Shown here: piece after piece, positions 1,889 to 54,347 of the stretch
Layout: each line of letters begins with the position of its first letter
Numbering within the stretch: position 1 is the stretch's first letter
Sequence record: OR887633
DNA: 64,000 nucleotides
Direction: 5' to 3' (one strand)
Source of the DNA: Shigella phage vb_GEC_SH_GT
Made by a program: the position numbers and the translations under genes
Notes under the pieces: generated by a model
The model's database searches: none
What the model was told of the DNA's origin: nothing
The model's input: only the letters and a program-made list of their open reading frames with translations

Positions 1889-2119
1889 TTACTGTTCAAT
1901 CAATCCCATGTAAAATTCTGCATCTTCAGCATCCATACCATCACAGTATTCATTAGCCATAAATCGTTCAAGAACTTCTAAAGGACCTTCAATAACAATA
2001 GAAAAATTGCAATAATTGGGATCATCATGAATACTTGTGATACTAAGTTCAGGATAACGATTACGAATAATTTCTTCAATATATTCAAAATCAACGATGT
2101 CAATATCAACTTTAGCCAT
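1889..2119 (-). CDS. hypothetical acidic early protein
   Basis: ORF; ATG at 2119 preferred (AGAGGAAAA SD 6 nt upstream) over track start 2140. Confidence 0.45.
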
Positions 2120-2162
2120 ATTGTTTTCCTCTTTAATCATCAGCAGTATTGCCGATAGTTGT

Positions 2163-2192
2163 ATAGTACCACAGTATGCTTTGGTTGTAAAC
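2163..2192 (-). promoter_or_regulatory. T4-type early promoter
   Basis: GTTTAC (2192-2187), 18-bp spacer, TACTAT (2168-2163); near-identical to module at 19103-19132. Confidence 0.6.
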
Positions 2193-2211
2193 CGTTTTGT
2201 GAAAAAAAATT

Positions 2212-2242
2212 TGAAATAAAAAAGGGGACCTCTAGGGTCCCC
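2212..2242 (-). terminator. rho-independent terminator downstream of gene 32
   Basis: GGGGACC-TCTA-GGGTCCCC hairpin followed by U-run on minus strand. Confidence 0.6.
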
Positions 2243-2264
2243 AATTAATTAGTAATATAATCTA

Positions 2265-3170
2265 TTAAAGGTCATTCAAAAGGTCATCCAGGTCCGTGTC
2301 ATCAGCACTAGATGAACTGCCAGAGCTTGAGCTCATAAAATCATCTTCAGTTTTTGTTTTGAAGTCATCAACATTAAATGCATCCAAATCATCAGCAACT
2401 TTATCAGCTTTCTTAGCGGCAGTCGCTGCGGCACCGCCCATCACAGCAGTTCCCATAACTTGACCGAATTTAGTATTCAGTTCTTCAAATGATTTGAATT
2501 TATCTTTAGAAGTCATTTCAGAAAGGTCAACCATTTGTTCGAACAGTTCTTTCTGGAAAGATTCATCGTCAATGTTTGGAATCGCAGATTGATTCAGGAA
2601 TTTAGATTCATCGTAGTTACTAAATCCAGAAACCTGTTTAACTTTCAGTACAAAGTTAGCACCTTCCCACGGACAAGTTACATCAACCGGAGTTTCACCC
2701 ATTTCAACATCAACTGCAATCATTGCGTTGATTTTATCCCAGATTTTCTTACCGAAACGGTATTTAAATACTTTACCTTCATTTTCTGGAGCAGCTGGGT
2801 CTTTTACTACAAGAATGTTAGCCCAGTAAGAAGTTTTACGTTTAACAAGACTGTACTCTTTATTGTCAGTGTTGTACAAATCATTTTTACTGATGTACTG
2901 ACATACTGGGCAAGAATCGTAATCACCGTGGGTAGATGAACATGTTTCAATATACCATTTACCATTTTTCTTGAAACCGTGATTTACAAGAATTGCGAAT
3001 GGTGCTTGTTCATCATTTTTAGACGGAAGAAAACGAATTACTGCTTGACCGTTACCCGCATTATCGAGTTTCAGTTTCCACTCGCCTTTATCTTCAGAAG
3101 AAAAACCTTTATTGCCATTCAGTTTAGCCATTTGTGCAGCAAGTTCAGCAGTAGATTTACGTTTAAACAT
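2265..3170 (-). CDS. 32: single-stranded DNA-binding protein gp32
   Basis: 301 aa; zinc-binding cluster [10 protein letters not shown]; acidic Ser/Asp-rich C-terminal tail; synteny. Confidence 0.93.
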
Positions 3171-3219
3171 TTTATTTCCTTTTTAATTTAATTAACAGTT
3201 GGTGCTATGACACTTTACC
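3171..3219 (-). promoter_or_regulatory. A/U-rich gene 32 leader (candidate autogenous translational operator)
   Basis: unstructured A/U-rich leader TTAAATTAAAAAGGAAATAAAATG on minus strand; function inferred from T4 gp32 autoregulation. Confidence 0.35.
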
Positions 3220-3852
3220 TCATAGCTGGCATAATTTGCAATACTCTGGGTCTTCGAGAGGTATCCAACCTGAGTTGAAATACTTTACCATCGATTTAGC
3301 AGTTGTATCAGTTATATTTATATTACCTTTAACTCTTCGCCATCCAGGAGTTTTACCGTACAGATTAGAGGATAATAATAACACATAATTCTCGTAAGCA
3401 ATATGAGATAATTTCCAAGACTCTATATTAGCTCGTGATGTTTTCCAAGGTCTAAAATCGTCACGGTTCATATAATTAGCCAATCTCATATGCTCTCTAA
3501 CTTCCGGGTCTTTGGCTGGATGAGTTTCACCACTCACACCAAATCCACCACCAGCATATACCAGATTAAAATAGTCTGGATTATCTCTGGCATTTACTTC
3601 AAGTTGGTATTTTCGTTCTGCTTCAATAACATCCAAGTCATCATCAATTTGAATTATTTTAACGCTCGGTTTTTGAAGCATTAGCGCATTCAAAAATCTT
3701 TTTTGTTTACATGAGCTCCAGTATTCCTTTCCGGAAGAGTCATATATTATTCCGTTCTCAAATGAGCAATTTAATTTACTACCGATATAGTAGTATGGCG
3801 GAGTCTTATTTTTGACACGGTCTTCAAATGTAAACCAATATACTATATTCAT
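3220..3852 (-). mobile_element. segG: GIY-YIG family homing endonuclease (SegG-like)
   Basis: N-terminal VYW...(13 aa)...YYIGSK resembling GIY-(10-11)-YIG; 210 aa; sits between 32 and 59. Confidence 0.5.
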
Positions 3853-3853
3853 A

Positions 3854-4507
3854 TCAATACTTGCAAGATTTCACAGTTTCAATGAAAACACTTTTAGCTT
3901 TCTGTGAATCAATATTTAAAATTTTTCTATAAGCCTTTAACTTTATAGAATAATTATTCCAGACTAAATTATCAGTCTGTTCATCATGTTTATCAATTAT
4001 ATTTAAAAATGAATCAAGCAAGATAAACGTCTCAAACGAAATTATGTTCGATTGTAGAAGTTTAAAAATATAACTTGACTGAACCTTTGGATTATATTCA
4101 AAGATTTCTTTAAAAGCAGAAACTTCAACTTTTTTACTAAAATAATAAATGTTGCGAATATCTTCTTCAAACTTAAATTTAATTTGCTTTAAGCGTCCGA
4201 TATATTCACGATAAAACACAAGTGCATCAGCGTCAGAGATGTCACCAATCCAAGCATCTTGGTTAGCAACCAAATTGCTTATAAAGATTAAAGCAAGTTC
4301 CTTTAATTTATATTTTTCTGATAACTTCTGGAAAAAATACTTATCCCTTCGCTTTTGATAAGCGGCATCAGACACCCGCATGCACCAATTATACTTAATT
4401 ACATCATACTTTCCATTCATATGTTGTTTTATCATTAAGTATAATTTATAAACTGATTTACCATCAATGTATCTTTCACCACCAGCAGGCATGCGGAGTT
4501 TAATCAT
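3854..4507 (-). CDS. 59: helicase loader gp59
   Basis: 217-aa ORF; start overlaps gene 33 stop (ATGA); sequence and position match T4-type gp59. Confidence 0.85.
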   Translation of the reverse strand: MIKLRMPAGGERYIDGKSVYKLYLMIKQHMNGKYDVIKYNWCMRVSDAAYQKRRDKYFFQKLSEKYKLKELALIFISNLVANQDAWIGDISDADALVFYREYIGRLKQIKFKFEEDIRNIYYFSKKVEVSAFKEIFEYNPKVQSSYIFKLLQSNIISFETFILLDSFLNIIDKHDEQTDNLVWNNYSIKLKAYRKILNIDSQKAKSVFIETVKSCKY

Positions 4508-6119: not shown

Positions 6120-9100
6120 ATGGCCGAGATTAAAAGAAAGTTCAGAGCAGAAGATGGTCTGGACGCAGGTGGTGATAAAATAATCAACGTAGCTTTAGCT
6201 GATCGTGCCGTAGGAACTGACGGTGTTAACGTTGATTACTTAATTCAAGAAAACACAGTTCAACAATACGATCCAACTCGTGGATATTTAAAAGATTTTG
6301 TAATCATTTATGATAACCGCTTTTGGGCTGCTATAAATGATATTCCAAAACCAGCAGGAGCTTTTAATAGCGGACGCTGGAGAGCATTACGTACCGATGC
6401 TAACTGGATTACGGTTTCATCTGGTTCATATCAATTAAAATCCGGTGAAGCAATTTCGGTTAACACTGCAGCTGGAAATGACATCACGTTTACTTTACCA
6501 TCTTCTCCAATTGATGGTGATACTATCGTTCTCCAAGATATTGGAGGAAAACCTGGAGTTAACCAAGTTTTAATTGTAGCTCCAGTACAAAGTATTGTAA
6601 ACTTTAGAGGTGAACAGGTACGTTCAGTACTAATGACTCATCCAAAGTCACAGCTAGTTTTAATTTTTAGTAATCGTCTGTGGCAAATGTATGTTGCTGA
6701 TTATAGTAGAGAAGCTATAGTTGTAACACCAGCGAATACTTATCAAGCGCAATCCAACGATTTTATCGTGCGTAGATTTACTTCTGCTGCACCAATTAAT
6801 GTTAAACTTCCAAGATTTGCTAATCATGGCGATATTATTAATTTCGTCGATTTAGATAAACTAAATCCGCTTTATCATACAATTGTTACTACATACGATG
6901 AAACGACTTCAGTACAAGAAGTTGGAACTCATTCCATTGAAGGCCGTACAACGATTGACGGTTTCTTGATGTTTGATGATAATGAGAAATTGTGGAGATT
7001 GTTTGACGGGGATAGTAAAGCGCGTTTACGTATCATAACGACTAATTCTAATATTCGTCCAAATGAAGAAGTTATGGTATTTGGTGCGAATAACGGAACA
7101 GCTCAGACAATTGAGCTTAAGCTTCCAACTAATATTTCTGTTGGTGATACTGTTAAAATTTCCATGAATTACATGAGAAAAGGACAAACAGTTAAAATCA
7201 AAGCTGCTGATGAAGATAAAATTGCTTCTTCAGTTCAATTGCTGCAATTCCCAAAACGCTCAGAATATCCACCTGAAGCTGAATGGGTTACAGTTCAAGA
7301 ATTAGTTTTTAACGGTGAAACTAATTATGTTCCAGTTTTGGAACTTGCTTACATAGAAGATTCTGATGGAAAATATTGGGTTGTACAGCAAAACGTTCCA
7401 ACTGTAGAAAGAGTAGATTCTTTAAATGATTCTACTAGAGCAAGATTAGGCGTAATTGCTTTAGCTACACAAGCTCAAGCTAATGTCGATTTAGAAAATT
7501 CTCCACAAAAAGAATTAGCAATTACTCCAGAAACGTTAGCTAATCGTACTGCTACTGAAACTCGCAGAGGTATTGCAAGAATAGCAACTACTGCTCAAGT
7601 GAATCAGAACACCACATTCTCTTTTGCTGATGATATTATCATCACTCCTAAAAAGCTGAATGAAAGAACTGCTACAGAAACTCGCAGAGGTGTTGCTGAA
7701 ATTGCTACGCAGCAAGAAACTAATGCAGGAACCGATGACACTACAATCATCACTCCTAAAAAGCTTCAAGCTCGTCAAGGTTCTGAATCATTATCTGGTA
7801 TTGTAACTTTTGTATCTACTGCAGGTGCTACTCCAGCTTCTAGCCGTGAATTAAATGGTACGAATGTTTATAATAAAAACACTAATAATTTAGTTGTTTC
7901 ACCTAAAGCTTTGGATCAGTATAAAGCTACTCCAACACAGCAAGGTGCAGTAATTTTAGCAGTTGAAAGTGAAGTAATTGCTGGACAAAGTCAGGAAGGA
8001 TGGGCAAATGCTGTTGTAACGCCAGAAACGTTACATAAAAAGACATCAACTGATGGAAGAATTGGTTTAATTGAAATTGCTACGCAAAGTGAAGTTAATG
8101 CAGGAACTGATTATACTCGTGCAGTCACTCCTAAAACTTTAAATGACCGTAGAGCAACTGAAAGTTTAAGTGGTATAGCTGAAATTGCTACACAAGTTGA
8201 ATTCGACGCAGGCGTCGACGATACTCGTATCTCTACACCATTAAAAATTAAAACCAGATTTAATAGTACTGATCGTACTTCTGTTGTTGCTCTATCTGGA
8301 TTAGTTGAATCAGGAACTCTCTGGGACCATTATACCCTTAATATTCTTGAAGCAAATGAGACACAGCGTGGTACACTTCGTGTAGCTACACAGGTCGAAG
8401 CTGCTGCAGGAACATTAGATAATGTTTTAATAACTCCTAAAAAGCTTTTAGGTACTAAATCTACCGAATCGCAAGAAGGTGTTATTAAAGTTGCAACTCA
8501 GTCTGAAACTGTGACTGGAACGTCAGCAAATACTGCTGTATCTCCAAAAAATTTAAAATGGATTGTGCAGAGTGAACCTACTTGGGCAGCTACTACTGCG
8601 ATAAGAGGTTTTGTTAAAACTTCATCTGGTTCAATTACGTTCGTTGGTAATGATACGGTAGGTTCAACACAGCCATTAGAATCATACGAGAAAAATAGCT
8701 ATGCAGTATCACCATATGAATTAAACCGTGTATTAGCAAATTATTTGCCGTTAAAAGCAAAAGCGGTAGATAGTAATTTATTGGATGGTCTAGATTCATC
8801 TCAGTTCATTCGTAGGGATATTGCACAGACGGTTAATGGTTCACTAACCTTGACACAACAAACGAATCTGAGTGCCCCTCTTGTATCATCTAGTACTGGT
8901 GAATTTGGTGGTTCATTGGCCGCTAATAGAACATTTACCATCCGTAATACAGGAGCCCCGACCAGTATCGTTTTCGAAAAAGGTCCTGCATCCGGGGCAA
9001 ATCCTGCACAGTCAATGAGTATTCGTGTATGGGGTAACCAATTTGGCGGCGGTAGTGATACGACCCGTTCGACAGTGTTTGAAGTTGGCGATGACACATC

Positions 9101-11849: not shown

Positions 11850-14800
11850 ATGGCTACTTTAAAACAAATACAATTTAAAAGAAGCAAAACCGCAGGTGCA
11901 CGTCCTGCTGCTTCAGTATTAGCCGAAGGTGAATTGGCTATAAACTTAAAAGATAGAACAATTTTTACTAAAGATGATTCAGGAAATATCATTGACTTAA
12001 GCATTTCCGCTGGTGGTAATATCAGTGGAAATGTAACTATTGATGGAACTTTACGCGTCAATGGACCAATAAACAATTTTGGAAATTTTTCCACAAGTGG
12101 CCAGATTACCGCTGGTAGTAGTATTTCAGCTCAAGTTTTTAGAGCATTGCAAGGTTCGTTTTATACAAGAGCTTCAGCCGGTGAAACAGCAAATGCCCAT
12201 TTATGGTTTGAAAATGCCGATGGCACTGAACGTGGCGTTATATATGCTCGTCCTCAAACTACAACTGCCGGTGAAATACGCCTTAGGGTTAGACAAGGAA
12301 CAGGAAGCACTACCAATAGTGAATTCTATTTCCGCTCTATAAATGGAGGCGAATTTCAGGCTAACCGTATTTTAGCTTCGGATGCATTAGTAACAAAACG
12401 CATTGCGGTTGATACTGTTATTCACGATGCCAAAACGTTTGGACAATATGATTCTCACTCTTTGGTCAACTATGTTTATCCTGGAACAGGTGAAACAAAC
12501 GGAATCAATTACCTTCGCAAATTCCGTGCTAAATCTGGTGGTACAATTTATCATGAATTAGCTTCTGCGCAAACCGGAAAAAGTGATGAACTTTCTTGGT
12601 GGACTGGTAATACAGCGGTTAATAAACAAATGGGCCTTCGCAATGATGGATCTTTAGTATTACGACGTTCACTTGCAATTGGTACAATTACAACAGATGA
12701 AAACATCAATAACTACGGTTCCACTGGAGCAATGGGTGAATGTTATATAGTTATTGGTGATGCATCAACAGGTTTATCATACAAAAAAACTGGGGTATAT
12801 GACTTAGTTGCTAGTGGTCTTTCTGTAGCATCTATTACTCCTGATAGTTTCCGTAGTACTCGTAAAGCATTATTTGGACGTTCAGAAGACCAAGGTGGTA
12901 CGTGGCTTCTTCCTGGTCAGAACGCAGCTCTTCTTTCAGTTCGTACTGAAGTTGACCAAAATAATAACGGAGATGGTCAGACACATATTGGCTATAATAG
13001 TAATGGTAAATTTTATCATTATTTTAGAGGCAGAGGAAGAATGGCCATTGGAATGGCCGAAGGACTTATTGTTGAACCAGGAATTTTAGATATTAAAACT
13101 AGTTCAAATACATTAAGTTTGCGTGCTGATGGTACCGTCGCTTCTGTTCAAACATTAAAGCTTAATAATGGATTATATTTTAATAGTGATGGAACTAACG
13201 CTTCTCTAATTTTTAAAGCAGCTTCAGGTATTGATGGTACTAAACAGATACTTTGGGAAGGTGGTACTCGTGCTGGGCAGAATAAGAGCTATGTAGCTGT
13301 TAAAGCATGGGGTAATTCATTTAACGCATCTGGCGATCGTAATCGTGAAACGGTTTTTGAAGTAGCTGATGGGCAAGGATATTATTTTTATTCACAGCGT
13401 GTGGCTCCAAGTGGCTCTGAAACTACTGGGCCTGTTGTAACCCAGTTCAATGGACAAGTTAATGCTAGAGGAAGTATTATTACTGACGGAAGTTTTAAAG
13501 TTAATGGATTAAGCACTTTAGTCGGTAATGTTACTATGTCTAATGGTTTGTTTGTCCAAGGTGGTTCTTCTATTACTGGACAGGTAAAAATTGGTGGAAC
13601 GGCTGATGCATTAAGAATTTGGAATGCTGAATACGGTGCTATTTTCCGCCGTTCAGAAGCGTCATTACATATTATCCCTACTCCTAAAGATGCCGGTGAA
13701 AGCGGTGGAATAAGTAATCTCCGCCCACTTAGTATTAGCCTTAATAATGGTATGGTGCAAATGCGTCATTCCGTTACATTAGGTGATGATGGCGCAGGCG
13801 GTAATATGGTGACGGTTGATAATGATTCTAAAGTTATGGTAATGACGACTAATAGCCGTATTAGTCCTAACTTCCGTATGCAAATTGGACAGTCGTCTTA
13901 TATTGATGTGGAATGTACTGATGCTGTGAGACCTGCTGGAGCCGGTTCTTTTGCTTCACAGAATAACGAAAACGTTCGCGCTCCGTTCTATATGAATATT
14001 GATAGAACAGATACAAGCACTTATGTTCCTATTGTGAAACAAAGATACGTTCAAAATAATAGTTGCTATTCTATTGGTACTTTAATTAATGGTGGTAACT
14101 TTAGAGTTCATTATCATGAAGGCGGTGACGGCGTTTCTACTGGTGCTATTATAAAGGATCTTGGATGGGAATTTAATAAAAACGGTGATTTTTATTCTCC
14201 TGGTAAATTAGGCGCTGGAAATATTAGAATAGGTACTGATGGTAATATTACTGGCGGAACTGGTAACTTTGCTAACTTGAACACAACTATCGAATCATTA
14301 AAAACCGATATTGTTTCAAGTTATCCTATTGGAGCTCCTATTCCATGGCCTACAGATACTCCTCCTAATGGTTACGCTATTATGGAAGGACAGACTTTTG
14401 ATAAGTCTGCATACCCAAAATTGGCTATAGCTTACCCATCTGGAGTAATTCCTGATATGCGCGGGCAAACTATCAAAGGTAAACCAAGCGGTCGTGCTGT
14501 GTTAAGTGCAGAAGCTGATGGTGTTAAGGCTCATAACCATAGTGCTTCAGCATCTAATACTGATTTAGGTACTAAAACTACATCAAGCTTTGATTATGGC
14601 ACTAAGACGACAAGTAGCTTTGATTATGGCACTAAGACTAGCAATACCACAGGTAACCACTCTCATACTGTAAGCGGTACTACGAGTTCTGCTGGTGCAC
14701 ACCAACATGCGCGCTCAGGTCCTCAGATACAAGCCGGCATACCCAATAACATATTCTATGACGGATATAATAGTGTAGGTGCAAACGCCAACGCTAAATT

Positions 14801-15077
14801 CACTGGAACCGTGAACGGTGCTACTGCAGGGTCGAATATAGCCAAAACTTCTTCAGACGGTGCTCATACTCATACTTGGTCTGGTACTACAAGCACTACA
14901 GGTAACCATGCTCACACAGTAGGTATTGGTGCTCATACCCATACTGTAGGTATCGGTGCTCATACCCACACGGTAGCAATTGGCTCGCATGGTCATACTA
15001 TCACTGTAAATAGTACAGGTAATACAGAAAACACGGTTAAAAACATTGCTTTTAACTATATCGTTCGTTTAGCATAA
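11850..15077 (+). CDS. 37: long tail fibre distal subunit / receptor-binding adhesin gp37
   Basis: 1075-aa ORF; C-terminal His-x-His boxes (GNHSHT, GAHTHT, GSHGHT); segment homologous to gp34 (WGNxF...TVFEV...YFYSQR). Confidence 0.9.
14568..14640 (+). repeat. in-frame 30-bp tandem repeat encoding [10 protein letters not shown] x2 plus partial third copy
   Basis: units 14568-14597 and 14598-14627 differ at 7 synonymous positions. Confidence 0.85.
14919..14999 (+). repeat. in-frame 27-bp tandem repeat x3 encoding His-box units VGIGAHTHT / VGIGAHTHT / VAIGSHGHT
   Basis: units 14919-14945, 14946-14972, 14973-14999; first two differ by 3 synonymous nt. Confidence 0.85.
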
Positions 15078-18425: not shown

Positions 18426-19061
18426 TCACAGTTCAGATGCTACAGCGATTACAGCTTCAATGTTTTCTGCCGAGCGTTTAATGTCAAGATACACATTACC
18501 GTTTTTAGCGATTTTACATGACATTCCGATATCAGTAAATTTCTGAATATGATGTTCCATCATTTTGTATCCAAAAATTCGCATATTTCCATTGTTGTTA
18601 ATTTCAAAATTACGAATTCCGTGAGTGCGTTTTTCTAAAATAGCAAGATAGTTACTGCGATAAGTTTCAACCTTTTTAAGAACAAATCCATTTTCATCCA
18701 AAAGTTTTAACATGAGGTCTTTATCTTCTTCCATATCTGAAGTAATCTCGCGAGCTTTACGAGTTGCTCGTTTTTTAAGCAGTTCCGGAGCATTTTCCTG
18801 TGCGTATAAAGTTGCTGCATTTGAAATAATATCCTGGGCTTCACCAGTAATGATTAATCCATCACCAGATTTCTCCACCAGGCCTTTTTTAATCAACACC
18901 CCAATATTACTATTAACTACTGCATTACCTAAATCTGGATGCACCTCACGAACTTCTGCAGCTGTAATGAAATCTTTCTTAGCAATAGTAATTAAAATCG
19001 CAGCAGTTTTTTCATTCAGAACATCGTTAGAAGCTTTGATGATGTAAGTTACTTTAGACAT
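18426..19061 (-). CDS. motA: middle-promoter transcription activator MotA
   Basis: 211-aa ORF; sequence and position match T4 MotA. Confidence 0.85.
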   Translation of the reverse strand: MSKVTYIIKASNDVLNEKTAAILITIAKKDFITAAEVREVHPDLGNAVVNSNIGVLIKKGLVEKSGDGLIITGEAQDIISNAATLYAQENAPELLKKRATRKAREITSDMEEDKDLMLKLLDENGFVLKKVETYRSNYLAILEKRTHGIRNFEINNNGNMRIFGYKMMEHHIQKFTDIGMSCKIAKNGNVYLDIKRSAENIEAVIAVASEL

Positions 19062-19102
19062 TTTCTAATCTCCGTAATTCTGTATCAGTAGTTGATAGTT
19101 GT

Positions 19103-19132
19103 ATAGTACCATAGAATGCTTTGGTTGTAAAC
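19103..19132 (-). promoter_or_regulatory. T4-type early promoter for motA
   Basis: GTTTAC (19132-19127), 18-bp spacer, TACTAT (19108-19103). Confidence 0.6.
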
Positions 19133-19157
19133 AGTTTTGTGAAAAAATTTTTGAAAT

Positions 19158-19183
19158 AAAAAAGGGAGAGCCGAGGCTCTCCC
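19158..19183 (-). terminator. rho-independent terminator
   Basis: GGGAGAGCC/GGCTCTCCC hairpin followed by U-run on minus strand. Confidence 0.6.
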
Positions 19184-19188
19184 TAAAA

Positions 19189-19338
19189 TTACTGCATGAA
19201 TGTGATAACTATCATGATAACACGTTGAATTCCGAACGCAAGAAGACCTCCTGCTACGGCTGGAACAACGCCTAAACCCGCCAGTAAAATGCTACCAGAT
19301 ACTAATGCAGCGCTTGTAATACCAATGAATGGACTCAT
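19189..19338 (-). CDS. small membrane protein (49 aa)
   Basis: hydrophobic ORF; ATG overlaps gene 52 stop (ATGA); below track cutoff. Confidence 0.4.
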   Translation of the reverse strand: MSPFIGITSAALVSGSILLAGLGVVPAVAGGLLAFGIQRVIMIVITFMQ

Positions 19339-20966: not shown

Positions 20967-21047
20967 TCACTGGCGTCCAAAGACGCCTTTAGTTTTAAGA
21001 TTATTACGATAGAACTGCATCACATGTTCGTTATGGAAATTACTCAT
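20967..21047 (-). CDS. stp: Stp peptide (26 aa; anticodon-nuclease PrrC activator / restriction alleviation)
   Basis: manual translation gives [26 protein letters not shown], matching T4 Stp as recalled. Confidence 0.75.
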
Positions 21048-21213
21048 ACACACCACACATTTTGCATAAACGTTCAAAACAGATAAATCCGCCACCTACA
21101 CACATCACGACAGCCACATTATCATTAAGAGGTAGACCTAAAGCCGTAAAGATTCCAGTCAATGTGAATAAGGCTAAAACTAATAGGTAACCCATTACAA
21201 ATAGAGCTTTCAT
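21040..21213 (-). CDS. small membrane protein (57 aa)
   Basis: hydrophobic ORF; stop overlaps stp start, start overlaps ndd stop. Confidence 0.35.
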
Positions 21214-22620: not shown

Positions 22621-22884
22621 TCATAGTTCAATCTCAGCGATTTTCATTTCATTACTATTAATAGCCGCTTTAAGACTATCTGAAAGAATTACACACCAGT
22701 GGTCATTCATATGACCATTAACTAAGCGTGTAATTTCTTCGGGAGTTGAAAAATAAGGCGTATCAGACTCCCAATGCGATAGTCCCAAGCGAGTATAAAT
22801 CATGCCTTCATCATCGCTAGAATATTCAACTGACACAAACTCATCAGTTATTTTATGTTTAGCGTAATAAAATTTAAATTTCAT
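22621..22884 (-). CDS. hypothetical early protein (87 aa)
   Basis: ATG at 22884 with GGAGGA SD; track's longer ORF runs through the promoter and into denB. Confidence 0.5.
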   Translation of the reverse strand: MKFKFYYAKHKITDEFVSVEYSSDDEGMIYTRLGLSHWESDTPYFSTPEEITRLVNGHMNDHWCVILSDSLKAAINSNEMKIAEIEL

Positions 22885-22911
22885 TTTTACTCCTCCGTAG
22901 CTGATAGTTGT

Positions 22912-22941
22912 ATAGTACCACAGTCCTTGTGGTATGTAAAC
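22912..22941 (-). promoter_or_regulatory. T4-type early promoter
   Basis: GTTTAC (22941-22936), 18-bp spacer, TACTAT (22917-22912). Confidence 0.55.
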
Positions 22942-23516: not shown

Positions 23517-23579
23517 TTAGACTTTCCTTTATGTCGGAATCACTGATATTCATATAAATCATAATTTCTCTTAAAACAA

Positions 23580-23596
23580 AAGGGCCGAAGCCCCTT
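23580..23596 (-). other. C(UUCG)G intercistronic RNA hairpin
   Basis: GGGGC-UUCG-GCCC(C) on minus transcript. Confidence 0.5.
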
Positions 23597-23599
23597 ATT

Positions 23600-23794
23600 T
23601 TATTTGAATTGTGCAATTCTTTTCTCTAAGCATTCAGCATAAGATTTCATTGAAATAAACTGCGAAAGTAACAGTTCTTGCTCAACTGCACTAACTGTTA
23701 GAAACTTTGCGCTTTCTAAAAATTTACTCAGTGCATTAATTTTGAGCATTAATTGATCGTATTCTTCTTTTACTCGTGCTTGATAACCTAACAT
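23600..23794 (-). CDS. hypothetical protein (64 aa)
   Basis: ORF between rIIB and denB. Confidence 0.45.
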   Translation of the reverse strand: MLGYQARVKEEYDQLMLKINALSKFLESAKFLTVSAVEQELLLSQFISMKSYAECLEKRIAQFK

Positions 23795-27219: not shown

Positions 27220-29036
27220 TACTGGCTCATCCATTCTTTACGAAGGTCAGCATTATCTCCCATGAGCATTTCAAAAAGCTCTTTCCAGTTCTCAGGAAGT
27301 TTAACAACATCATATACTGGGTTTTGAATCATCTCACGATATTCAGATTTTTCCAAAGAGCCAAGTCCCTTAATATAACGGATGCTATGTTTAGGTAGAG
27401 CATCTTTAGCACTCTCATATTCAGCGACTGTATAAAACCATTCTTGTTTTTTACCGACCTGAGCGATGATTACAGGAGTTTTGACAAAGCGAATTCTTCC
27501 TTGCTCAAACAGTTCTGGCCAATTACTAAAAAATCCGAGCAGAGAAGGATAAATGCTTCCTAGACCATCATGGTCAGCATCAGTCATAATAGCAATATTA
27601 TGATAATTCAAGTTTTCAGCTTTTTCACCGAGAACTAGACCAGTGATTGCGCAAATATCAAATAGTTCTTTGTTTTTAAGCATATCTGCATAAGACATAC
27701 CCCAACTGTTGAGAACTTTACCGCGTAATGGATAACCACCATGAAGTTCTTTATCGCGAACATCAATAAGATATCCGATAGCAGAATCACCCTCAGTCAA
27801 GAAAAGAGTAGTATCAGCATCTTTACCACAAAGATTCGCTTTAATATGTTTATGAACCTTAGCTTTAGAAGCCTTTTTAGCTGCTTTAGTTTCTGCTGCT
27901 TTTTCTGCCGCCAATTTACGAGCCAAGGCAGCTTCAATAATTGGCATTAAAATTGCTTCATTGTTTAAAATAGCGCGTGAAATCTTTTTAGCATCAAGTT
28001 GAATATGACTACGGATTTCACCAAATGGAGAAGTCAAACGCTCTTTAGTTTGAGAGTCAAATCGCATGTTTTTCATATCGCGAACAAACATAACGATAGT
28101 CAAACATTCTTTAACACGTGCTTTAGTTACATCAATTTTGAATTTACGTTTGATTTGTGGAATAAGGTCTTCACAAATATCATCCATAACACAGTCAATA
28201 TGATGGCCACCATTCTTAGTATGAATGTTATTGACGTACGTCAACTGACGAAAACCATCCGGTGAACGACCAACCGCAATAGAACAATTTTCTTGTTCTT
28301 GAACGATAGCATGTTCATCATACTGTCGTGCATATTTCTTAAAATTGCCCTGAACCTTTTTACCATTAAAGGTAAATTGAATATCAGGATAAACAACAGC
28401 AAGTGTCTGGAGACGATCTAATGTAATGTCAAGATAAACTTGGGACAGCTCATTAGTTTCAAATGACATAAAATCAGGAATGAAAGTAACACGAGTTCCT
28501 TTCCATTTTCCAGGAATATCTTCCCATGATTTATTTTCCATGCCATTTGAACAACGAACTACAATATTATTTTGACCATCGCCAGTTTCACCAACAAACA
28601 TCACAGAAAAAATGTTTGTCAAACTAGAACCAACACCATTCATACCGCCAGTGACGCGTTCTTTATCATCACCGAAGTTACCACCTGCTTTTGGAATAGT
28701 CCATGCAGCAACAGGACCAGGAATTTCTTCACCGGTAGGTGTTTTAACCATCGCCTGTGGAATACCACGACCGTTATCTTCAACTGTTACTTGATTGTTT
28801 TTAATAGTAACATTAATTTTATTTGCGAATTTAAACTTAGTACGAATACCTTCATCTACTGAGTTATCAATAATTTCATCAATAAGCTTAACAAGACCAG
28901 GTACATACTGAACACTTTCCCATTTACCAAACAGAAAGCGCTCATGCATTTCATTAGCAGAAGAGCCAATATACATGCCGCTACGCTTTTTGATATGTTC
29001 AATATCGCTCAGAATTTTAATTTCATTCTTAATCAT
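27219..29036 (-). CDS. 39: DNA topoisomerase II large subunit gp39, unsplit (GyrB-like ATPase + TOPRIM)
   Basis: 605 aa from ATG at 29036 (track start 29039 is GTG); ATPase and TOPRIM regions contiguous in one ORF. Confidence 0.9.
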   Translation of the reverse strand: MIKNEIKILSDIEHIKKRSGMYIGSSANEMHERFLFGKWESVQYVPGLVKLIDEIIDNSVDEGIRTKFKFANKINVTIKNNQVTVEDNGRGIPQAMVKTPTGEEIPGPVAAWTIPKAGGNFGDDKERVTGGMNGVGSSLTNIFSVMFVGETGDGQNNIVVRCSNGMENKSWEDIPGKWKGTRVTFIPDFMSFETNELSQVYLDITLDRLQTLAVVYPDIQFTFNGKKVQGNFKKYARQYDEHAIVQEQENCSIAVGRSPDGFRQLTYVNNIHTKNGGHHIDCVMDDICEDLIPQIKRKFKIDVTKARVKECLTIVMFVRDMKNMRFDSQTKERLTSPFGEIRSHIQLDAKKISRAILNNEAILMPIIEAALARKLAAEKAAETKAAKKASKAKVHKHIKANLCGKDADTTLFLTEGDSAIGYLIDVRDKELHGGYPLRGKVLNSWGMSYADMLKNKELFDICAITGLVLGEKAENLNYHNIAIMTDADHDGLGSIYPSLLGFFSNWPELFEQGRIRFVKTPVIIAQVGKKQEWFYTVAEYESAKDALPKHSIRYIKGLGSLEKSEYREMIQNPVYDVVKLPENWKELFEMLMGDNADLRKEWMSQ

Positions 29037-29088
29037 CACTTATCCTCGTTTGGTTTCGGGAATATTATACTCCAGTAATCATAAAGCT

Positions 29089-29106
29089 AAAGGCCCGAAG
29101 GCCTTT
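29089..29106 (-). other. C(UUCG)G RNA hairpin upstream of gene 39
   Basis: AAAGGCC-UUCG-GGCCUUU on minus transcript. Confidence 0.45.
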
Positions 29107-29366
29107 TATTTAAAACGAATAGTCGAATCCTTGAAGAATAGTCCAGAACATACTGTTCCTTCTACTTTCTGCCCAGTAGGTCCAATAGCACGAAATCCAG
29201 TATGCTGGAAATCATTTTCAGAGCAACCGAACCAATTATATCCAGTGATTTCAATATTAGTAAAACCACTTGAAGACAAAACTTTGGTTGCATTATCAGC
29301 ATCAGTACATCCTATTAAAGATACTGCTAATACTAATGCTGCGATAGAACGATTAACATATTTCAT
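29106..29366 (-). CDS. putative lipoprotein
   Basis: signal peptide with lipobox (LAVSLIGC); ATG at 29366 (track start is GTG). Confidence 0.5.
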   Translation of the reverse strand: MKYVNRSIAALVLAVSLIGCTDADNATKVLSSSGFTNIEITGYNWFGCSENDFQHTGFRAIGPTGQKVEGTVCSGLFFKDSTIRFK

Positions 29367-29371
29367 AATTT

Positions 29372-29743
29372 TCACTTAAATTTAATGGCTTGAAGGAGAC
29401 TAATAACTCTCAAGCGACTTCTTTCATCTTTAACTGTAAAGGAAAGGGGGTCACCGGATTTCATAGTGATAGTGCATCCAAAATCAAAATTTTCGGGAAC
29501 TTCTTCGAAGAAGTCAAATTCTTCAGCATAAATTAGAATATTACTCTGCATACTGTGAAGAATTTTTCCGTCATTTCCAGATGCTGTACTAATCATCGTA
29601 ACATTATGACCTTTCATATCTTCAACGATAAATTCGCTTGTAGATATTACAGCATTAATAGAACCATTCCTATAAATAGCAGACATTAGATATTTCTTTT
29701 CTTCGCCTTCGCGAATACGATATTTCTTACCGATTTTAAACAT
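29372..29743 (-). CDS. hypothetical protein
   Basis: ORF; ATG at 29743 (track start is GTG). Confidence 0.45.
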   Translation of the reverse strand: MFKIGKKYRIREGEEKKYLMSAIYRNGSINAVISTSEFIVEDMKGHNVTMISTASGNDGKILHSMQSNILIYAEEFDFFEEVPENFDFGCTITMKSGDPLSFTVKDERSRLRVISLLQAIKFK

Positions 29744-30572: not shown

Positions 30573-30842
30573 TTAATTGAACAGTGGAGCGATGCGTTTC
30601 AGAAGAGTAGCAGCACCTTTGGCGAATTTTACATCATGAAAAACAGTTTCTTCTTCTGTAACAACACGAACTTTAATGTTTTCACAATCCCAATTTTTAC
30701 GAACAATCTTCAAAAGCTGCAGTAAATCTTTACATTCAGCAATATCGATAACACATCCACGAGAATCTTCCATTATCGCACGATAACCGTAAGCCATACC
30801 ATAATCGTTGAAAGATTGCTCGATGATAATTAAGTTTTCCAT
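30573..30842 (-). CDS. hypothetical protein
   Basis: ATG at 30842 (track start is TTG). Confidence 0.4.
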   Translation of the reverse strand: MENLIIIEQSFNDYGMAYGYRAIMEDSRGCVIDIAECKDLLQLLKIVRKNWDCENIKVRVVTEEETVFHDVKFAKGAATLLKRIAPLFN

Positions 30843-30885: not shown

Positions 30886-30891
30886 ATAGTA
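30886..30891 (-). promoter_or_regulatory. early-promoter-like -10 (TACTAT) inside 13-bp inverted repeat; weak -35
   Basis: ATCAGTAGTTGAT...ATCAACTACTGAT palindrome surrounds the -10. Confidence 0.3.
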
Positions 30892-30939
30892 CCATAATCA
30901 ACTACTGATGTATATAGTTTTATGAAAAAATTTTAAACT

Positions 30940-33786: not shown

Positions 33787-34033
33787 AAATAGCTTCCTCA
33801 AATTTAATCAGCAGCTTACAGACACTTTCATCTAGCGTAATTACCGTATCTGTATTACTGTGATATGATTGTTTTTCAATTCGTTTAATTGCTAGTATAG
33901 TATCACTTATAAGATTAAGCTTATAAAGGAGCTCAGCTCCTGTTACCATAACACTGAGGTTATCTTGCTTATCAGTATGCTTCTTTATACCATCTATTAG
34001 ACGATTTAAATATTTTGAATTGATGTTAATCAT
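33773..34033 (-). CDS. hypothetical protein
   Basis: 86-aa ORF, ATG start. Confidence 0.45.
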   Translation of the reverse strand: MININSKYLNRLIDGIKKHTDKQDNLSVMVTGAELLYKLNLISDTILAIKRIEKQSYHSNTDTVITLDESVCKLLIKFEEAICGNN

Positions 34034-34039
34034 ATATCC

Positions 34040-35359
34040 TCACACATAAAACACATCATAACGACCACGAGTGACACCAACATAAAGAAGCTGCTGAGCT
34101 AGTTCAGCATCTGCATAATGAATACAAGGCGTATAAATGAAAGCACGGTCTACAGACATGCCCTGCGCTTTATGGAATGTTGATGCAGGAAGTGCTTTCA
34201 CTTTACTAAACTGTGATTTAGCATCCCAAAAATCACTCCATGGAGCTTTTCCGCCTTTATTCCAATTTTTGTAAGTTTCTGCAGTTTTACCTAAAAATAG
34301 GTTAAACTTATATAGCTCTTCATCAGATGAAATTATTTTAATCTTTTCACGATAATATTCATCATCGCCGTAAGTTTCTACTGTTAAATCCCAATGACGA
34401 ATTAGATATTCTCCAGAAACACCACGAGCTTTAACAAATGTTGATGTATACTCTGCTTCTATAATACGAACTAATTGTCCGTTATTAAAAATAATTTCTG
34501 ACACAGGCTTTCCATCAATTTTATATGTTTTAATTAATGGTTCCTGCATTACAATAATTTCACCAACGATAAAATCTTTATCAGTTTCAAAAATCTTTTT
34601 ACGAATAATGCTATTTAACTTATCAACAGATTTATTCGTAAATGCCATTACGCGATTTTCAAACAAATCATCTAGTGATTTTACGATTGAAAAATAATTT
34701 ACCATAAAATCGCGTAAAGCGGTATCACCAGTAAATCCACGTACTCCATGTCCGTCAACAACTTTATCATAAATCCACTTACCGTTACGAACATCAGTAG
34801 CTACATCAATAATAGGAGCATTACTGCGTTTAACTTCAGTGAGTTCACACTGATAAAAATCTTTGTGCGTAAAGAATGGACTGATATAAGCAGTGTTTTC
34901 TCCTGGGTCAACAGGTCTAATTTGCTTATTATCGCCTATTCCAATTATAGTACACCATGGCGGGATAGTTGAAAGCAGAATTTTAAATAGCTTTCTATCA
35001 TACATTGACACTTCGTCGCAGATTAATACTCTGCATTTAGCCAAATCTGGTACTTCTTTTTGTTCAAAAAGAACGTTTTCTTCGTATGTTACCGGGTTAA
35101 TTTTAAGAATACTGTGAATAGTACTCGCTTCTTTCCCTGATAGTTTTGAAAGAATCTTTTTAGCTGCATGTGTAGGAGCTGCTAAAATAATTCCAGTTTC
35201 GCCTGTAGATATTAAGGCTTCAATGATGAACTTAGTAAGAGTAGTCTTACCAGTACCAGCAGGTCCATTAATAGTTACATGATGTTTCTTTTCTTTGATA
35301 GCCCTCATAACAATGTTAAAGGCATTTTTCTGGCCTTCGGTCAAATCATCAAATGTCAT
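34040..35359 (-). CDS. dda: SF1B DNA helicase Dda
   Basis: 439 aa; Walker A GPAGTGKT, Walker B LICDEVSM. Confidence 0.9.
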   Translation of the reverse strand: MTFDDLTEGQKNAFNIVMRAIKEKKHHVTINGPAGTGKTTLTKFIIEALISTGETGIILAAPTHAAKKILSKLSGKEASTIHSILKINPVTYEENVLFEQKEVPDLAKCRVLICDEVSMYDRKLFKILLSTIPPWCTIIGIGDNKQIRPVDPGENTAYISPFFTHKDFYQCELTEVKRSNAPIIDVATDVRNGKWIYDKVVDGHGVRGFTGDTALRDFMVNYFSIVKSLDDLFENRVMAFTNKSVDKLNSIIRKKIFETDKDFIVGEIIVMQEPLIKTYKIDGKPVSEIIFNNGQLVRIIEAEYTSTFVKARGVSGEYLIRHWDLTVETYGDDEYYREKIKIISSDEELYKFNLFLGKTAETYKNWNKGGKAPWSDFWDAKSQFSKVKALPASTFHKAQGMSVDRAFIYTPCIHYADAELAQQLLYVGVTRGRYDVFYV

Positions 35360-39965: not shown

Positions 39966-40202
39966 TTAACCACCTATTTGTGTAGGCGTAAACATTGCAG
40001 CATTCTTAGTTTTCCAGTCAGCTGCATCAGAAACTACAGTAGAATATGCCGCCTTTTCAGAAGGAAAGGTCTGATAATGAGAATCTGCAATACGGTGTTC
40101 ATTTGAATATACATCAAATGCTACAGAAACTTCCATACCTTTAACTTCTTTGCCTTCACCCGCTGGATGAGTAAAGGTCTTGATGTTAACGAAACCACCC
40201 AT
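39966..40202 (-). CDS. soc: small outer capsid protein Soc (divergent variant)
   Basis: 78 aa; conserved core VNIKTF...VSVAF...HYQTFPSEKAAYSTV; late promoter 32 nt upstream. Confidence 0.75.
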   Translation of the reverse strand: MGGFVNIKTFTHPAGEGKEVKGMEVSVAFDVYSNEHRIADSHYQTFPSEKAAYSTVVSDAADWKTKNAAMFTPTQIGG

Positions 40203-40233
40203 AATAAACTCCTTTATTGTTTAATTACAAGTG

Positions 40234-40241
40234 TATTTATA
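40234..40241 (-). promoter_or_regulatory. late promoter TATAAATA for soc
   Basis: exact TATAAATA on minus strand inside the 3' end of the HNH ORF. Confidence 0.6.
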
Positions 40242-41073
40242 AACCATTTTCAAACCTCTTTATCATATTTATATAGTTTTCATCGGGATAACCTAGACTA
40301 ACTGCTAACTTTCTAAAATTGACATATTTAGGTTTGTTGTTATTAATCCATAATTCTCTAAGCTCTTTTTCATAATTCCATTTAAGTTGATTTCTGCGTG
40401 CAGTTTTGCTTAAAGTTTTTCCTTTAGCTTTTAAAGCTTTTTCGGATGATTGTTTTAATTTTTGAATATTTAAAACTTCTTCTATAGATAAATTATTTTC
40501 CTTTGAATACCTTATGCAAAAATCTTTTACTACGGCTATTAGGCAATTTTTGTGAGTACCTAAAATTTCTGGATTATTTTCTTCAACTAAAATTCCCCAA
40601 TATCTTCTGTAGCGAGGCATATCCCTTGAAATCCAGTCATTATACCAAAAATCAAAGTTGGAATACATGAAAGATTTTCTTTTGCGAAGAGTATCTTGGT
40701 TTATCCATTGCTCACGTTTATCAGCCCATAACTTAATAGTAAAGTCTTTCTCTAAGTCAGAAAGCTTCTTAAATTGCGAGCTATTTACTGAGGTCATTCT
40801 CTGGAATGCATTTAGCAATCCAAATCTTCCAGTTGAACATAAGAGATAGTGAACATATATGTGTTGATATATTGGGAGATATACTCTATTCCAAGGATAT
40901 ATTTTAAAATCACTATACTCAGGAAATGCGCATTTAGGAAGTATATGATGGGCTTCTGTTTTAGATTTAATGTGAGTGTTTAACTTATACTTATCTATAA
41001 TTTTTAAGTACTCATCTAAAAGTTCCCATTGCGGGAACTTTTCTTTAAGAGCAGATTTGAAATTAATATCCAT
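40237..41073 (-). mobile_element. putative HNH-family homing endonuclease
   Basis: 278 aa from ATG at 41073 (track start is TTG); TEAHHILPKC motif; basic C-terminal half. Confidence 0.45.
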
Positions 41074-44647: not shown

Positions 44648-44694
44648 ACTAGTAGAAGCAAACAGACAAATTGCAATAATTGGTGATTTCAGTT

Positions 44695-44877
44695 TCATTC
44701 TTCTCCTCCTTCATGTTGATGAACATATTCTTTTTCAAGTCTAGAGCACAAGTTTTCATATTCAACTAATAAGAGTGAATCAAGTGCGTTATTTCTATGC
44801 TGACACCGTTCTTGTAAAGAATCCATCTCTGAACGTTGTTCTTGTGTTAATAATTGATAACCTGATACTTTAGACAT
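44695..44877 (-). CDS. hypothetical early protein (60 aa)
   Basis: ATG at 44877 with GGAGA SD; own early promoter. Confidence 0.45.
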   Translation of the reverse strand: MSKVSGYQLLTQEQRSEMDSLQERCQHRNNALDSLLLVEYENLCSRLEKEYVHQHEGGEE

Positions 44878-44913
44878 TTTGTTCTCCATTTACTCGTTTG
44901 TTTTGATAGGTCT

Positions 44914-44942
44914 ATAATAACATGTTTAAAACAAAAGTAAAC
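44914..44942 (-). promoter_or_regulatory. T4-type early promoter
   Basis: GTTTAC (44942-44937), 17-bp spacer, TATTAT (44919-44914). Confidence 0.5.
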
Positions 44943-45196
44943 TATTTTATTTCCTCAAGTTCGTTAATCAATAAAAGTTCTCTGACACTAAAAACAAAGA
45001 AAAATGTGTTCCCATCAACCAGAGCATGACCGCTAATAGAACACCCTCTGCGGAATTTAGAAACTTCACAATCTAGAACTGTAAAGGGTTTTAATCCTAT
45101 GACTTTAGCTGTGCGTCTATTCAGTTCACAACCACTTGCGAATTTTTCCAAATCTTCTTCTGATTTAAACTGATATTCTCTATTAACTAGCATCAT
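44942..45196 (-). CDS. hypothetical early protein (84 aa)
   Basis: ATG start; own early promoter. Confidence 0.45.
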   Translation of the reverse strand: MMLVNREYQFKSEEDLEKFASGCELNRRTAKVIGLKPFTVLDCEVSKFRRGCSISGHALVDGNTFFFVFSVRELLLINELEEIK

Positions 45197-45227
45197 TTTC
45201 TTTTCTCCGCGATTAGCTGATAGAATT

Positions 45228-45257
45228 ACTATAACACAACTCTATCAGCTTGTAAAC
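45228..45257 (-). promoter_or_regulatory. T4-type early promoter
   Basis: GTTTAC (45257-45252), 18-bp spacer, TATAGT (45233-45228); -10 embedded in inverted repeat. Confidence 0.55.
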
Positions 45258-45259
45258 TA

Positions 45260-45502
45260 CTATTTTACTAGCACCAATAACTGTTTCTCTAACTTGACGA
45301 TTTTACGAAAGTATCTTTTGCATTGGCGAATCTGTCGCTTCGTAGGGCGCACAGCAAACTTAATAAATTCCACTCGACCAAATGGAGGACTTTCTTCTGC
45401 TGGAATATCTAACACCAATTCCCACGTATCTGCAACAAGTGCTTTGAATTGAGTATTTTTCCTGACATTATACGGAGTAGGTTTAAATAAAACAATGTGC
45501 AT
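45260..45502 (-). CDS. hypothetical early protein adjacent to dmd (80 aa; possible TifA-like)
   Basis: ATG at 45502 with GAGGA SD; longer track ORF starts at TTG inside dmd. Confidence 0.4.
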   Translation of the reverse strand: MHIVLFKPTPYNVRKNTQFKALVADTWELVLDIPAEESPPFGRVEFIKFAVRPTKRQIRQCKRYFRKIVKLEKQLLVLVK

Positions 45503-48700: not shown

Positions 48701-48777
48701 TCATTTTTTCCATAGGCATCATTATATTTTCCTCACTGGTTAAAGATAGAGTAATTATAACACAATAAATTTAGGCA

Positions 48778-51150: not shown

Positions 51151-51160
51151 AACAATTTCC

Positions 51161-51425: not shown

Positions 51426-51455
51426 ATAGTACCACGGAAGAACAGGGATGTAAAC
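51426..51455 (-). promoter_or_regulatory. T4-type early promoter
   Basis: GTTTAC (51455-51450), 18-bp spacer, TACTAT (51431-51426). Confidence 0.55.
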
Positions 51456-54306: not shown

Positions 54307-54327
54307 TTGATATATTATACTCCAAAT

Positions 54328-54345: not shown

Positions 54346-54347
54346 GC

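Follow-up and report, generated by a model that had tools for sequence, protein, structure and literature searches.

The window, a stretch of 64,000 nucleotides with 35% G+C from Shigella phage vb_GEC_SH_GT (OR887633), stems from a Tequatrovirus, a relative of T4. Its gene 32 region, which matched 828 phage records when used as a query, is up to 97.9% identical to Tequatrovirus genomes. The window is colinear with T4 at ~145.1-168.9 kb and then at 0-39.7 kb, with identities of mostly 92-98%. The window contains two copies of a composite regulatory element (Table 1). Copy A is flanked by gene 32 and frd.3, and copy B by motA.1 and motA. The flanking genes of both copies are encoded on the minus strand, and the tail-fibre genes between the copies on the plus strand. 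According to the T4 annotations and the open reading frames, each copy lies on the 5′ side of an early gene that has the same orientation and is followed downstream by an SD sequence and a start codon.

Table 1. Features at copies A and B and the further members of the close promoter subfamily in the window. Promoter and transcript assignments are predictions.
Feature	Position	Strand	Basis and details
frd.3	1889..2119	-	76 aa, MAKVDIDIV...; ATG at 2119; T4 annotation and colinearity; first gene after copy A
Copy A, predicted initial transcribed region	2120..2162	-	First 9 nt ACAACTATC common to copy B, then locus-specific 5′UTR with SD AAAGAGGAAAA
Copy A, predicted core promoter (frd.3)	2163..2192	-	Promoter scan; -35 GTTTAC 2192-2187; 18-nt spacer AACCAAAGCATACTGTGG 2186-2169, ending in a TGn extension (terminal bases TGG); -10 TACTAT 2168-2163
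Copy A, T-run merging into A/T-rich UP-element region	2193..2223	-	TTTTTTATTTCAAATTTTTTTTCACAAAACG; 28/31 identical to copy B
Copy A, hairpin	2224..2242	-	Terminator scan; GGGGACC-CTAGA-GGTCCCC, then TTTTTTATTT
Gene 32 stop codon	2265-2267	-	ORF listing
Gene 32 (ssDNA-binding protein)	2265..3170	-	301-aa ORF with end ...DDLLNDL; colinear with T4 gp32
motA (activator of middle transcription)	18426..19061	-	211 aa; ATG at 19061; T4 annotation; downstream of copy B
Copy B, predicted core promoter (motA)	19103..19132	-	Promoter scan; -35 GTTTAC 19132-19127; spacer AACCAAAGCATTCTATGG 19126-19109; -10 TACTAT 19108-19103
Copy B, T-run and UP-element region	19133..19162	-	Alignment with copy A
Copy B, hairpin	19163..19184	-	Terminator scan; AGGGAGAGC-CTCG-GCTCTCCCT, then TTTTTATTTC
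motA.1	19189..19338	-	49 aa, hydrophobic; stop codon 19189-19191; T4 annotation; upstream of copy B
Third member, denB/ndd.6-region early promoter	22912..22941	-	Spacer ATACCACAAGGACTGTGG; without adjacent hairpin
Fifth member, motB/cef intergenic region	30886..30915	-	Degenerate -35 ATATAC
Fourth member, promoter downstream of gene 43	51426..51455	-	Spacer ATCCCTGTTCTTCCGTGG; gene 43 terminator hairpin ~95 nt upstream

The hairpin of copy A lies 22 nt past the stop codon of gene 32, has an RNA fold of -14.3 kcal/mol, and should terminate the gene 32 transcript. The hairpin of copy B, which reads (A)GGGAGAGC-CTCG-GCTCTCCC(T) when its flanking pair is included (19184-19163), begins 4 nt past the motA.1 stop codon and folds with -21.1 kcal/mol (z = -5.6). 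Both are annotated as terminators in relatives, the copy B hairpin in KAW1E185 and fPS-65. On the transcribed strand, each consists of a G+C-rich stem-loop past a stop codon, with a U-run directly behind it, and both share with intrinsic terminators the stem of 7-9 bp, the loop of 4-5 nt, and the distance of 4-22 nt from the stop codon. They differ from this class in that the U-run doubles as the distal UP region and in that the loops are found in either orientation among phages. Judging from the T4 literature and the consensus matches, transcription probably ends at both hairpins. The first-pass annotation had described a hairpin that follows each repeated segment, with stems that differ between the copies while pairing is kept. 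A hairpin is indeed present beside each segment, but it follows the segment only when the plus strand is read. Given the minus-strand orientation of the genes, the hairpin is situated upstream of the promoter and ends the preceding gene. The stems differ and remain paired, as described, yet there is no sign of one compensated ancestor. Compensatory covariation is rejected, since the two hairpins have just 11/22 positions in common and different phages conserve each of them at its own locus. They are probably different terminators rather than variants of one. A scan of the whole window against Rfam at gathering thresholds gave no match, and the block is therefore not explained by a known RNA family.

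Downstream of the hairpins, both copies carry the A/T-rich sequence TTTTTTATTTCAAA(T/A)(T/A)TTTTTTCACAAAAC before the -35 element. An exact GTTTAC is found at -36 to -31 in both (with the hexamer TTTACA), which is the motif and position known from T4 early promoters (Nolan et al. 2006, PMC1524935). The core reads TTTACA-17 bp-TACTAT, with a TG-extended -10 element of the form TAnnnT. T4 early promoters constitute a UP/-35/TGn/-10 class with extra conserved positions (Hinton 2010, PMC2988021), and A and B are like this class in the GTTTAC, the TG-extended -10 element, the A/T-rich UP region, the site 5′ of early genes, and the orientation. In contrast to the class, their -10 element is not TATAAT but TACTAT, a form found in a subfamily of five window promoters. 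They additionally have a common spacer, which is outside the class consensus. Several related genome records annotate a terminator and a predicted early promoter at the same sites. The reading of the block as a terminator plus early-promoter module is borne out by these annotations, by the early-promoter signature, and by the hairpin that comes after the stop codon of the preceding gene. The T4 literature and the consensus matches lead us to infer that A and B are early promoters that restart transcription. On the minus strand, an intrinsic terminator would halt transcription from gene 32 (A) or gene 52/motA.1 (B), its T-run would merge into the A/T-rich UP element, and a strong sigma-70 early promoter (GTTTAC, 17-bp spacing, TG-extended TACTAT) would restart transcription into frd.3 or motA.

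In T4-type phages, elements of this composition have been named promoter-early stem-loops (PeSLs). In RB49 and phi1 they comprise a stem-loop, an AT-rich region, -35 and -10 elements, and an SD/ATG, with ~100 bp conserved, and reporter assays were used to measure how they act as promoters and terminators (Arbiol et al. 2010, PMC2839356). Recombination between neighbouring PeSLs of these phages was shown by sequenced mini-circles of 0.4-1.4 kb, and the ~100-bp conservation was proposed to make PeSLs preferred sites of homologous exchange (PMC2839356). The T4/PST pair was later included in the concept, with TTTACW-N17-TAYWAT as the consensus, and PeSLs were termed “mobile regulatory cassettes,” with site-specific recombination left open by the authors (Comeau et al. 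2014, PMC4122927). The composite element of A and B is the published PeSL and an ordinary, known feature of T-even genomes. All of its parts stand in the published order (A, 2242-2119; B, 19184-19061), the T4/PST consensus fits both copies, and several copies exist in the window, with 19 early promoters in 64 kb. Further PeSL-like traits of A and B are the location between genes, the recurrence at several places in the genome, the conservation of ~70-100 bp, and the proposed role in homologous exchange. The first-pass annotation had interpreted such modules as substrates for homologous recombination that shuffles early-gene cassettes. As the PeSL element and the recombination hypothesis had already been described, this interpretation repeats a published idea. 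The published emphasis lies on hyperplastic regions, ORFan indels, and excision between neighbours, whereas A and B are separated by 17 kb and border on core genes. Unlike in the published cases, the signal at copy A appears to be a spacer replaced by paralogous sequence, with gene content unchanged.

The similarity between the two copies extends over a sharply bounded block. Positions 2154-2223 and 19094-19163 are identical at 65/70 positions (93%) at a fixed offset of 16,940 bp, or at 68/73 when the CCC at the foot of the hairpin is included. The near-identical string that had been reported at 2163-2223 and 19103-19163 matches at 56/61 positions and is thus a part of this larger block. The flanks are at background, with 12/54 identical positions on one side and 20/55 on the other. 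By chance, a match of at least 70/79 would be expected anywhere in a 64-kb window with 35% GC at ~1e-20. When the 19 early promoters of the window are aligned in one register and all pairs are compared, A and B form the top pair in the full block, in the UP region, and in the spacer. They agree at 66/74 positions of a 74-nt block (89%; mean of all pairs 47%, sd 9%), at 28/31 positions of the UP region (90%; mean 39%), and at 16/18 positions of the 18-nt spacer (mean 38%). The likeness could have been limited to the promoter hexamers. The agreement of the UP region and of the spacer, which is outside the class consensus, places it well beyond them.

A and B belong to a larger family of early promoters. 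The pattern GTTTAC-N(16-18)-TAnnnT, scanned on both strands of the window, yields 18 sites with an exact GTTTAC, all of them on the minus strand, which is the strand of the early genes, and 0 on the plus strand. A 19th member, whose -35 element is degenerate (ATATAC), came to light through a search for repeats and through an iterated nhmmer profile, by which the same promoter set was retrieved as well. Five promoters (A, B, and those at 22941, 30915, and 51455) form a close subfamily with at least 70% identity over 74 nt. They have the UP region, the -35 and -10 elements, and the first transcribed bases in common, and their spacers differ. Further copies of the promoter core had been noted at 22912-22941 and 51426-51455. 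Both are real (GTTTAC-N18-TACTAT). Over 74 nt, their identity with A and B is 72-76%, and their spacers are unlike those of A and B. The former resembles A and B in the UP, -35, -10, and initial transcribed blocks, and a promoter is annotated at the equivalent site in the T4 record X75802. The member at 30886..30915 carries the 5′UTR ATCAACTACTGATACAGAA exactly as in copy B. A hairpin is immediately adjacent to three of the 19 promoters, namely A, B, and the one at 39923. Within the UP region, ATTTCAAA is present in both window copies and ATTTTAAA in both T4 copies. This apparent concerted change was given no weight, as the pattern is noisy across more genomes and consists of homopolymer length changes.

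Both loci were read base by base in seven genomes, which are the window, T4, PinkRuby, KAW1E185, RB5, RB51, and fPS-65. At motA, five of the six relatives have AACCAAAGCATACTGTGG as the promoter spacer. PinkRuby deviates from it at three positions, and copy B of the window at two. By eye, the right half of the PinkRuby motA promoter looks to be of the ndd.4 type, which would make this promoter a chimera. At frd.3, the flanks of the promoter are locus-specific, with the gene 32 tail and the hairpin upstream and CAACTATCGGCAATACTGC downstream. The 5′UTR of copy A matches the orthologous frd.3 loci at 29-32/32 positions and copy B at 8/32. Between these flanks, three different spacers are found. 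The motA form is present in the window, PinkRuby, and KAW1E185, T4 carries AAGCATAAAGCTTTATGG, and RB5, RB51, and fPS-65 carry ATCC(T/C)TGT(C/T)CTTCCATGG. Compared with the frd.3 locus of T4, copy A is identical at 44/44 upstream positions (hairpin and gene 32 tail) and at 29/32 positions of the 5′UTR. Its spacer matches the T4 frd.3 spacer at 9/18 positions and the T4 motA spacer at 18/18. Across the alleles, the frd.3 flanks are 93-100% conserved, and the 18-nt patch differs at about half of its positions.

The other two frd.3 spacers also have counterparts elsewhere in the genome. In T4, a terminator/promoter cassette that separates nrdC.11 from nrdC.10 has a spacer identical (18/18) to the T4-type one, and the counterpart of this cassette in fPS-65 is located after the thioredoxin gene. 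An exact 34-mer of this type occurs in 425 records and is found at frd.3 in only ~75 of them. The RB51-type spacer matches the T4 promoter upstream of e.8 (~70.67 kb) at 17/18 positions. The frequencies of the alleles were taken from an annotated phage collection, as an IMG/VR pattern scan for the common core returned 18 stretches on few contigs, which are too few for allele statistics. Each spacer was joined to the frd.3-specific 5′UTR in a 100-nt query and counted at an identity of at least 95%. Among ~490 records, 46 are of the motA type, 75 of the T4 type, and 307 of the RB51 type, where the identity bands serve as proxies for alleles and ~60 records fall outside the three classes. At least one of the latter, EP01, carries a motA-type allele with a 3-nt indel. 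Spot checks of intermediate identities revealed differences in the UTR or small indels and not intermediate spacers.

The likeness of A and B might be ascribed to functional convergence, in which both are optimal strong early promoters shaped by selection on RNA polymerase contacts and no exchange takes place. T4 early promoters are conserved beyond the hexamers (PMC2988021), and the UP, -35, -10, and initial transcribed blocks of A and B are indeed common to several other promoters of the window. The spacer does not follow this pattern, as it averages 38% identity among the 19 promoters, yet agrees at 16/18 positions between A and B and at 18/18 between window A and T4 motA. Moreover, three spacers that are unrelated to one another occur at frd.3, depending on the phage, which means that the locus does not demand any one of them. 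Each of the three matches a different paralogous promoter at 17-18 of 18 positions. Convergence is thereby largely refuted and is a very improbable source of the shared spacer.

T-even phages recombine freely at homologous loci. The frd.3 alleles could hence be old polymorphisms that are exchanged by allelic recombination only, with the paralog likeness dating back to the original duplication of the cassette. In agreement with allelic exchange, FJ1, the closest relative in the gene 32 region (97.9%), has the T4-type frd.3 allele and not that of the window, which indicates that frd.3 alleles reassort among lineages. Three alleles that each match a different paralog (17-18/18) cannot, however, all be ancestral to frd.3, and they require that paralogous sequence replaced the spacer at least twice. 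The change of an 18-nt patch at about half of its positions between flanks that are 93-100% conserved is likewise hard to reconcile with allelic exchange as the sole process, which we regard as unlikely.

Because three frd.3 alleles each match a different non-allelic promoter within conserved flanks, A and B are best read as paralogous PeSL cassettes in which the frd.3 core has, with high probability, been overwritten from a motA-type promoter by ectopic conversion. More generally, the comparison among phages suggests that PeSL copies overwrite one another's cores by recombination. The chimeric frd.3 promoters, with motA, nrdC.10, and e.8 spacers inside locus-specific flanks, fit recombination between PeSL copies. 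In the lineage of this phage, the frd.3 core would have been overwritten through short-patch, non-reciprocal recombination with a motA-type promoter. The UP/-35 block (~37 nt) and the -10/initial transcribed block (~19 nt) would serve as homology arms, and allelic recombination between phages would then reassort the resulting frd.3 alleles. UvsX-dependent break repair and template switching are candidate mechanisms in T4. The roles of motA as donor and frd.3 as acceptor are suggested solely by which of the two loci is invariant. The spacer of window A corresponds to the canonical motA form and not to the variant with two substitutions in copy B. The exchange would therefore not be recent in this genome and would predate the divergence of copy B from that form, or its donor was the motA promoter of a co-infecting phage.

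Ectopic gene conversion and concerted evolution of dispersed repeats are known in bacteria from rRNA operons, tuf genes, and REP elements. The process proposed here likewise involves a non-reciprocal transfer of short patches between non-allelic repeats that leaves locus-specific flanks intact. It differs from those systems in its very short homology arms (~37 and ~19 nt) and in that the repeats are regulatory elements and not genes. The word “conversion” is absent from the 2010 PeSL paper (PMC2839356), and a full-text literature search returned no work on gene conversion or concerted evolution of T4-like early promoters. Recurrent overwriting of the frd.3 spacer was not found stated in the PeSL papers or in that search, and it would extend the PeSL idea modestly, from gene gain and loss to the overwriting of a regulatory core. 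It provides a natural example in which the 18-nt spacer of one promoter appears to have been replaced from three paralogs with the flanks in place. The frd.3 spacer allele may also serve as a simple marker for tracking such events in hundreds of T-even phages.

A different outcome of recombination would be a reciprocal crossover between A and B, by which the block between them would be cut out or rearranged as one cassette. The copies are direct repeats of 70 nt with 93% identity, and mini-circles from nearby PeSLs have been demonstrated in RB49/phi1, although these measure just 0.4-1.4 kb (PMC2839356). The interval between A and B includes gene 32, segG, 59, 33, dsbA, rnh, the tail-fibre genes 34-38, t, asiA, arn, and motA. 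Several of these genes are essential in T4, as established by T4 genetics. A crossover would delete 17 kb together with essential genes, so its product would not be viable and only non-crossover conversion is viable for A and B. The seven genomes contain the same genes in the same order in this interval, except for the presence or absence of segG and small ORFs in the arn region. Excision or reshuffling through A and B is accordingly highly improbable. The proposal that the modules are recombination substrates is upheld by the mosaic spacers at A and by a promoter-flanked ORF indel at B, but not for a reciprocal exchange between A and B.

The designation as “mobile regulatory cassettes,” with site-specific recombination left open (PMC4122927), also brings to mind the insertion at both sites of a small mobile element, either one resembling a MITE or one moved by a site-specific recombinase or nuclease. 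The block ends CCCTTTTTT... and ...ACAACTATC are not inverted repeats, no target-site duplication flanks the A or B block, and no recombinase gene is adjacent to either copy. Both orthologous sites are occupied in all seven genomes that were read, with no empty site among them. A and B hence show none of the hallmarks of a transposon or MITE that were looked for (inverted repeats, target-site duplication, and empty sites), and insertion is scarcely credible as their origin.

That early-promoter cassettes evolve in concert by frequent short-patch ectopic conversion, which is locally stimulated and not random, is a speculative and rather doubtful generalization. Should it be true, promoter cores would represent a genome-wide exchangeable pool, and the strength or regulation of an early-gene promoter could be swapped in one step. 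The frd.3 promoter may be a recurrent acceptor because of its site at the 3′ end of gene 32, at which the SegG homing endonuclease is targeted. The repair of SegG breaks at gene 32 may stray into paralogous promoters up to ~90 kb away. Alternatively, the trigger may be template switching at the palindromic terminator hairpin, the loop of which is flipped between phages.

With respect to gene content, copy A shows no change in the seven genomes. Small-ORF indels between the window and T4 occur at the edges of other modules (22653/22894, 30634/30835, 44648/45279, 51150/51384, and 39972), and the indel at 44648/45279 has one boundary exactly at the -35 hexamer. The suggested shuffling of early-gene cassettes agrees with these indels in kind, but their number is close to the chance expectation. 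Of 13 early-region indels between the window and T4, 5-6 abut a promoter module, whereas ~4.5 are expected at random gene junctions under a crude null of ~19 promoters per ~100 gene junctions. With promoters at about one-fifth of the gene junctions, no enrichment is claimed.

A 100-nt query covering the motA promoter, the 5′UTR, and the first motA codons in the T4 form matched 359 of ~495 records at an identity of at least 95%, and 171 records fell into the band of 80-90%. Paracelsus and ECML-123-2, the two records listed from the latter band with full query coverage, both split the query into two pieces. When Paracelsus is read directly, the copy B promoter is followed by a 75-aa ORF, a second promoter, and then motA. 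This arrangement is a promoter-flanked ORF cassette of the kind predicted by the PeSL model. By extrapolation from the Paracelsus read and one more split match, an additional ORF and a further promoter seem to be present at motA in ~170 relatives. The second promoter of Paracelsus reads GTGTTTACTTCTGCTTTAAACATGATACTAT with a TGCTT motif, and an identical 22-nt sequence, CTATCAAATAAATGAACTGAAAC, follows each of the two promoters.

Relative to T4, the window differs both by losses or replacements and by small ORF-sized additions, eight of which are listed in the table. The T4 interval 2794-3910, which holds the bypass region of gene 60 together with 60.1 and mobA, is absent, as is mobB, and the window has other sequence where T4 carries segA/beta-gt and the soc/segF region. 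The segG gene adjoining gene 32 is retained (ORF 3220-3852). Several of the window-only segments start or end at the edges of early-promoter modules. The boundary at 44648 coincides exactly with the sp promoter's -35 hexamer.

Coordinates of the features discussed, in the window
Feature	Position	Strand
Sites of loss or replacement relative to T4	27554-27619, 62908-62933, 48688-49635, 39972-41063	
Segments in the window, missing in T4	44648-45279, 22653-22894, 51150-51384, 30634-30835, 57620-58407, 29368-29741, 33810-34040, 21047-21210	
Promoters with -10-flanking inverted repeat (position of -35 G)	1482, 22435, 30915, 31511, 32616, 37809, 45257, 45745	minus
C(UUCG)G hairpins	23572-23601, 29082-29111, 54321-54350, 56268-56297, 61692-61721	minus (transcribed)
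Further C(UUCG)G hairpin	directly upstream of promoter at 39923	

The loops of the terminator hairpins (window 2229-2237 and 19172-19175) are found both ways round, depending on the phage. In copy A, the gene 32 terminator with the frd.3 early promoter, the loop reads CTAGA in the window and T4 and TCTAG in fPS-65. The loop of copy B, the motA.1 terminator with the motA early promoter, is CTCG in the window, PinkRuby, KAW1E185, RB51 and Paracelsus, and CGAG in T4, RB5 and fPS-65. Since the alternative forms are exact reverse complements of each other, the comparison suggests that the loops were flipped by small inversions, through template switching inside the palindrome, and not by paired point mutations.

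An inverted repeat surrounds the -10 hexamer in 8 of the 19 early promoters of the window, and is absent from copies A and B. The first arm of this strong inverted repeat lies within the spacer and the second immediately 3' of the hexamer; at promoters 22435, 32616 and 37809, the 3' arm extends to the Shine-Dalgarno sequence. Folding of the 85 nt starting at the -35 gave z-scores of -2.4 to -5.0 against shuffles for these promoters. As judged from the sequence, the hairpin would form in read-through transcripts, and transcripts initiated at the promoter itself would be without the 5' arm. Short hairpins of one family also occur in the window. Their plus-strand sequence is GGGCCGAAGCCC, which corresponds to GGGC-UUCG-GCCC on the transcribed minus strand, and T-runs follow them. 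They are of the C(UUCG)G tetraloop type, which is classically linked with T4 intercistronic regions.

At the motA locus of Paracelsus, the copy-B promoter is separated from motA by a 75-aa ORF, whose product begins MKFKIENEIVKAK, and by a second promoter, in which a MotA-box-like TGCTT is present (501-941 of its compared sequence, corresponding to window 19062-19102). The ORF is absent from the window and T4. Among ~495 related records, 171 fall within an identity band (80-90% to a 100-nt motA-locus query) compatible with the Paracelsus-type arrangement.

By eye, the motA promoter of PinkRuby looks chimeric: the left half of its spacer is motA-type, and the right half, the -10 and the downstream bases (TTCCATGGTACTATTACCCTATCAACTA) match the ndd.4-type promoter. 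Such a chimera would place a breakpoint within the spacer.

The region of the distal tail-fibre genes 37/38 (window 11992-14934) is only patchily similar to T4, with fragments at 79-81% identity, which indicates an adhesin of another type than that of T4. Antisense inside the gene 34 coding sequence lies an exact GTTTAC-N18-TACAAT match (6573-6602, minus strand). The sequence around it is conserved in T4, and the match could be an antisense promoter or could have arisen by chance in a coding sequence that is conserved.
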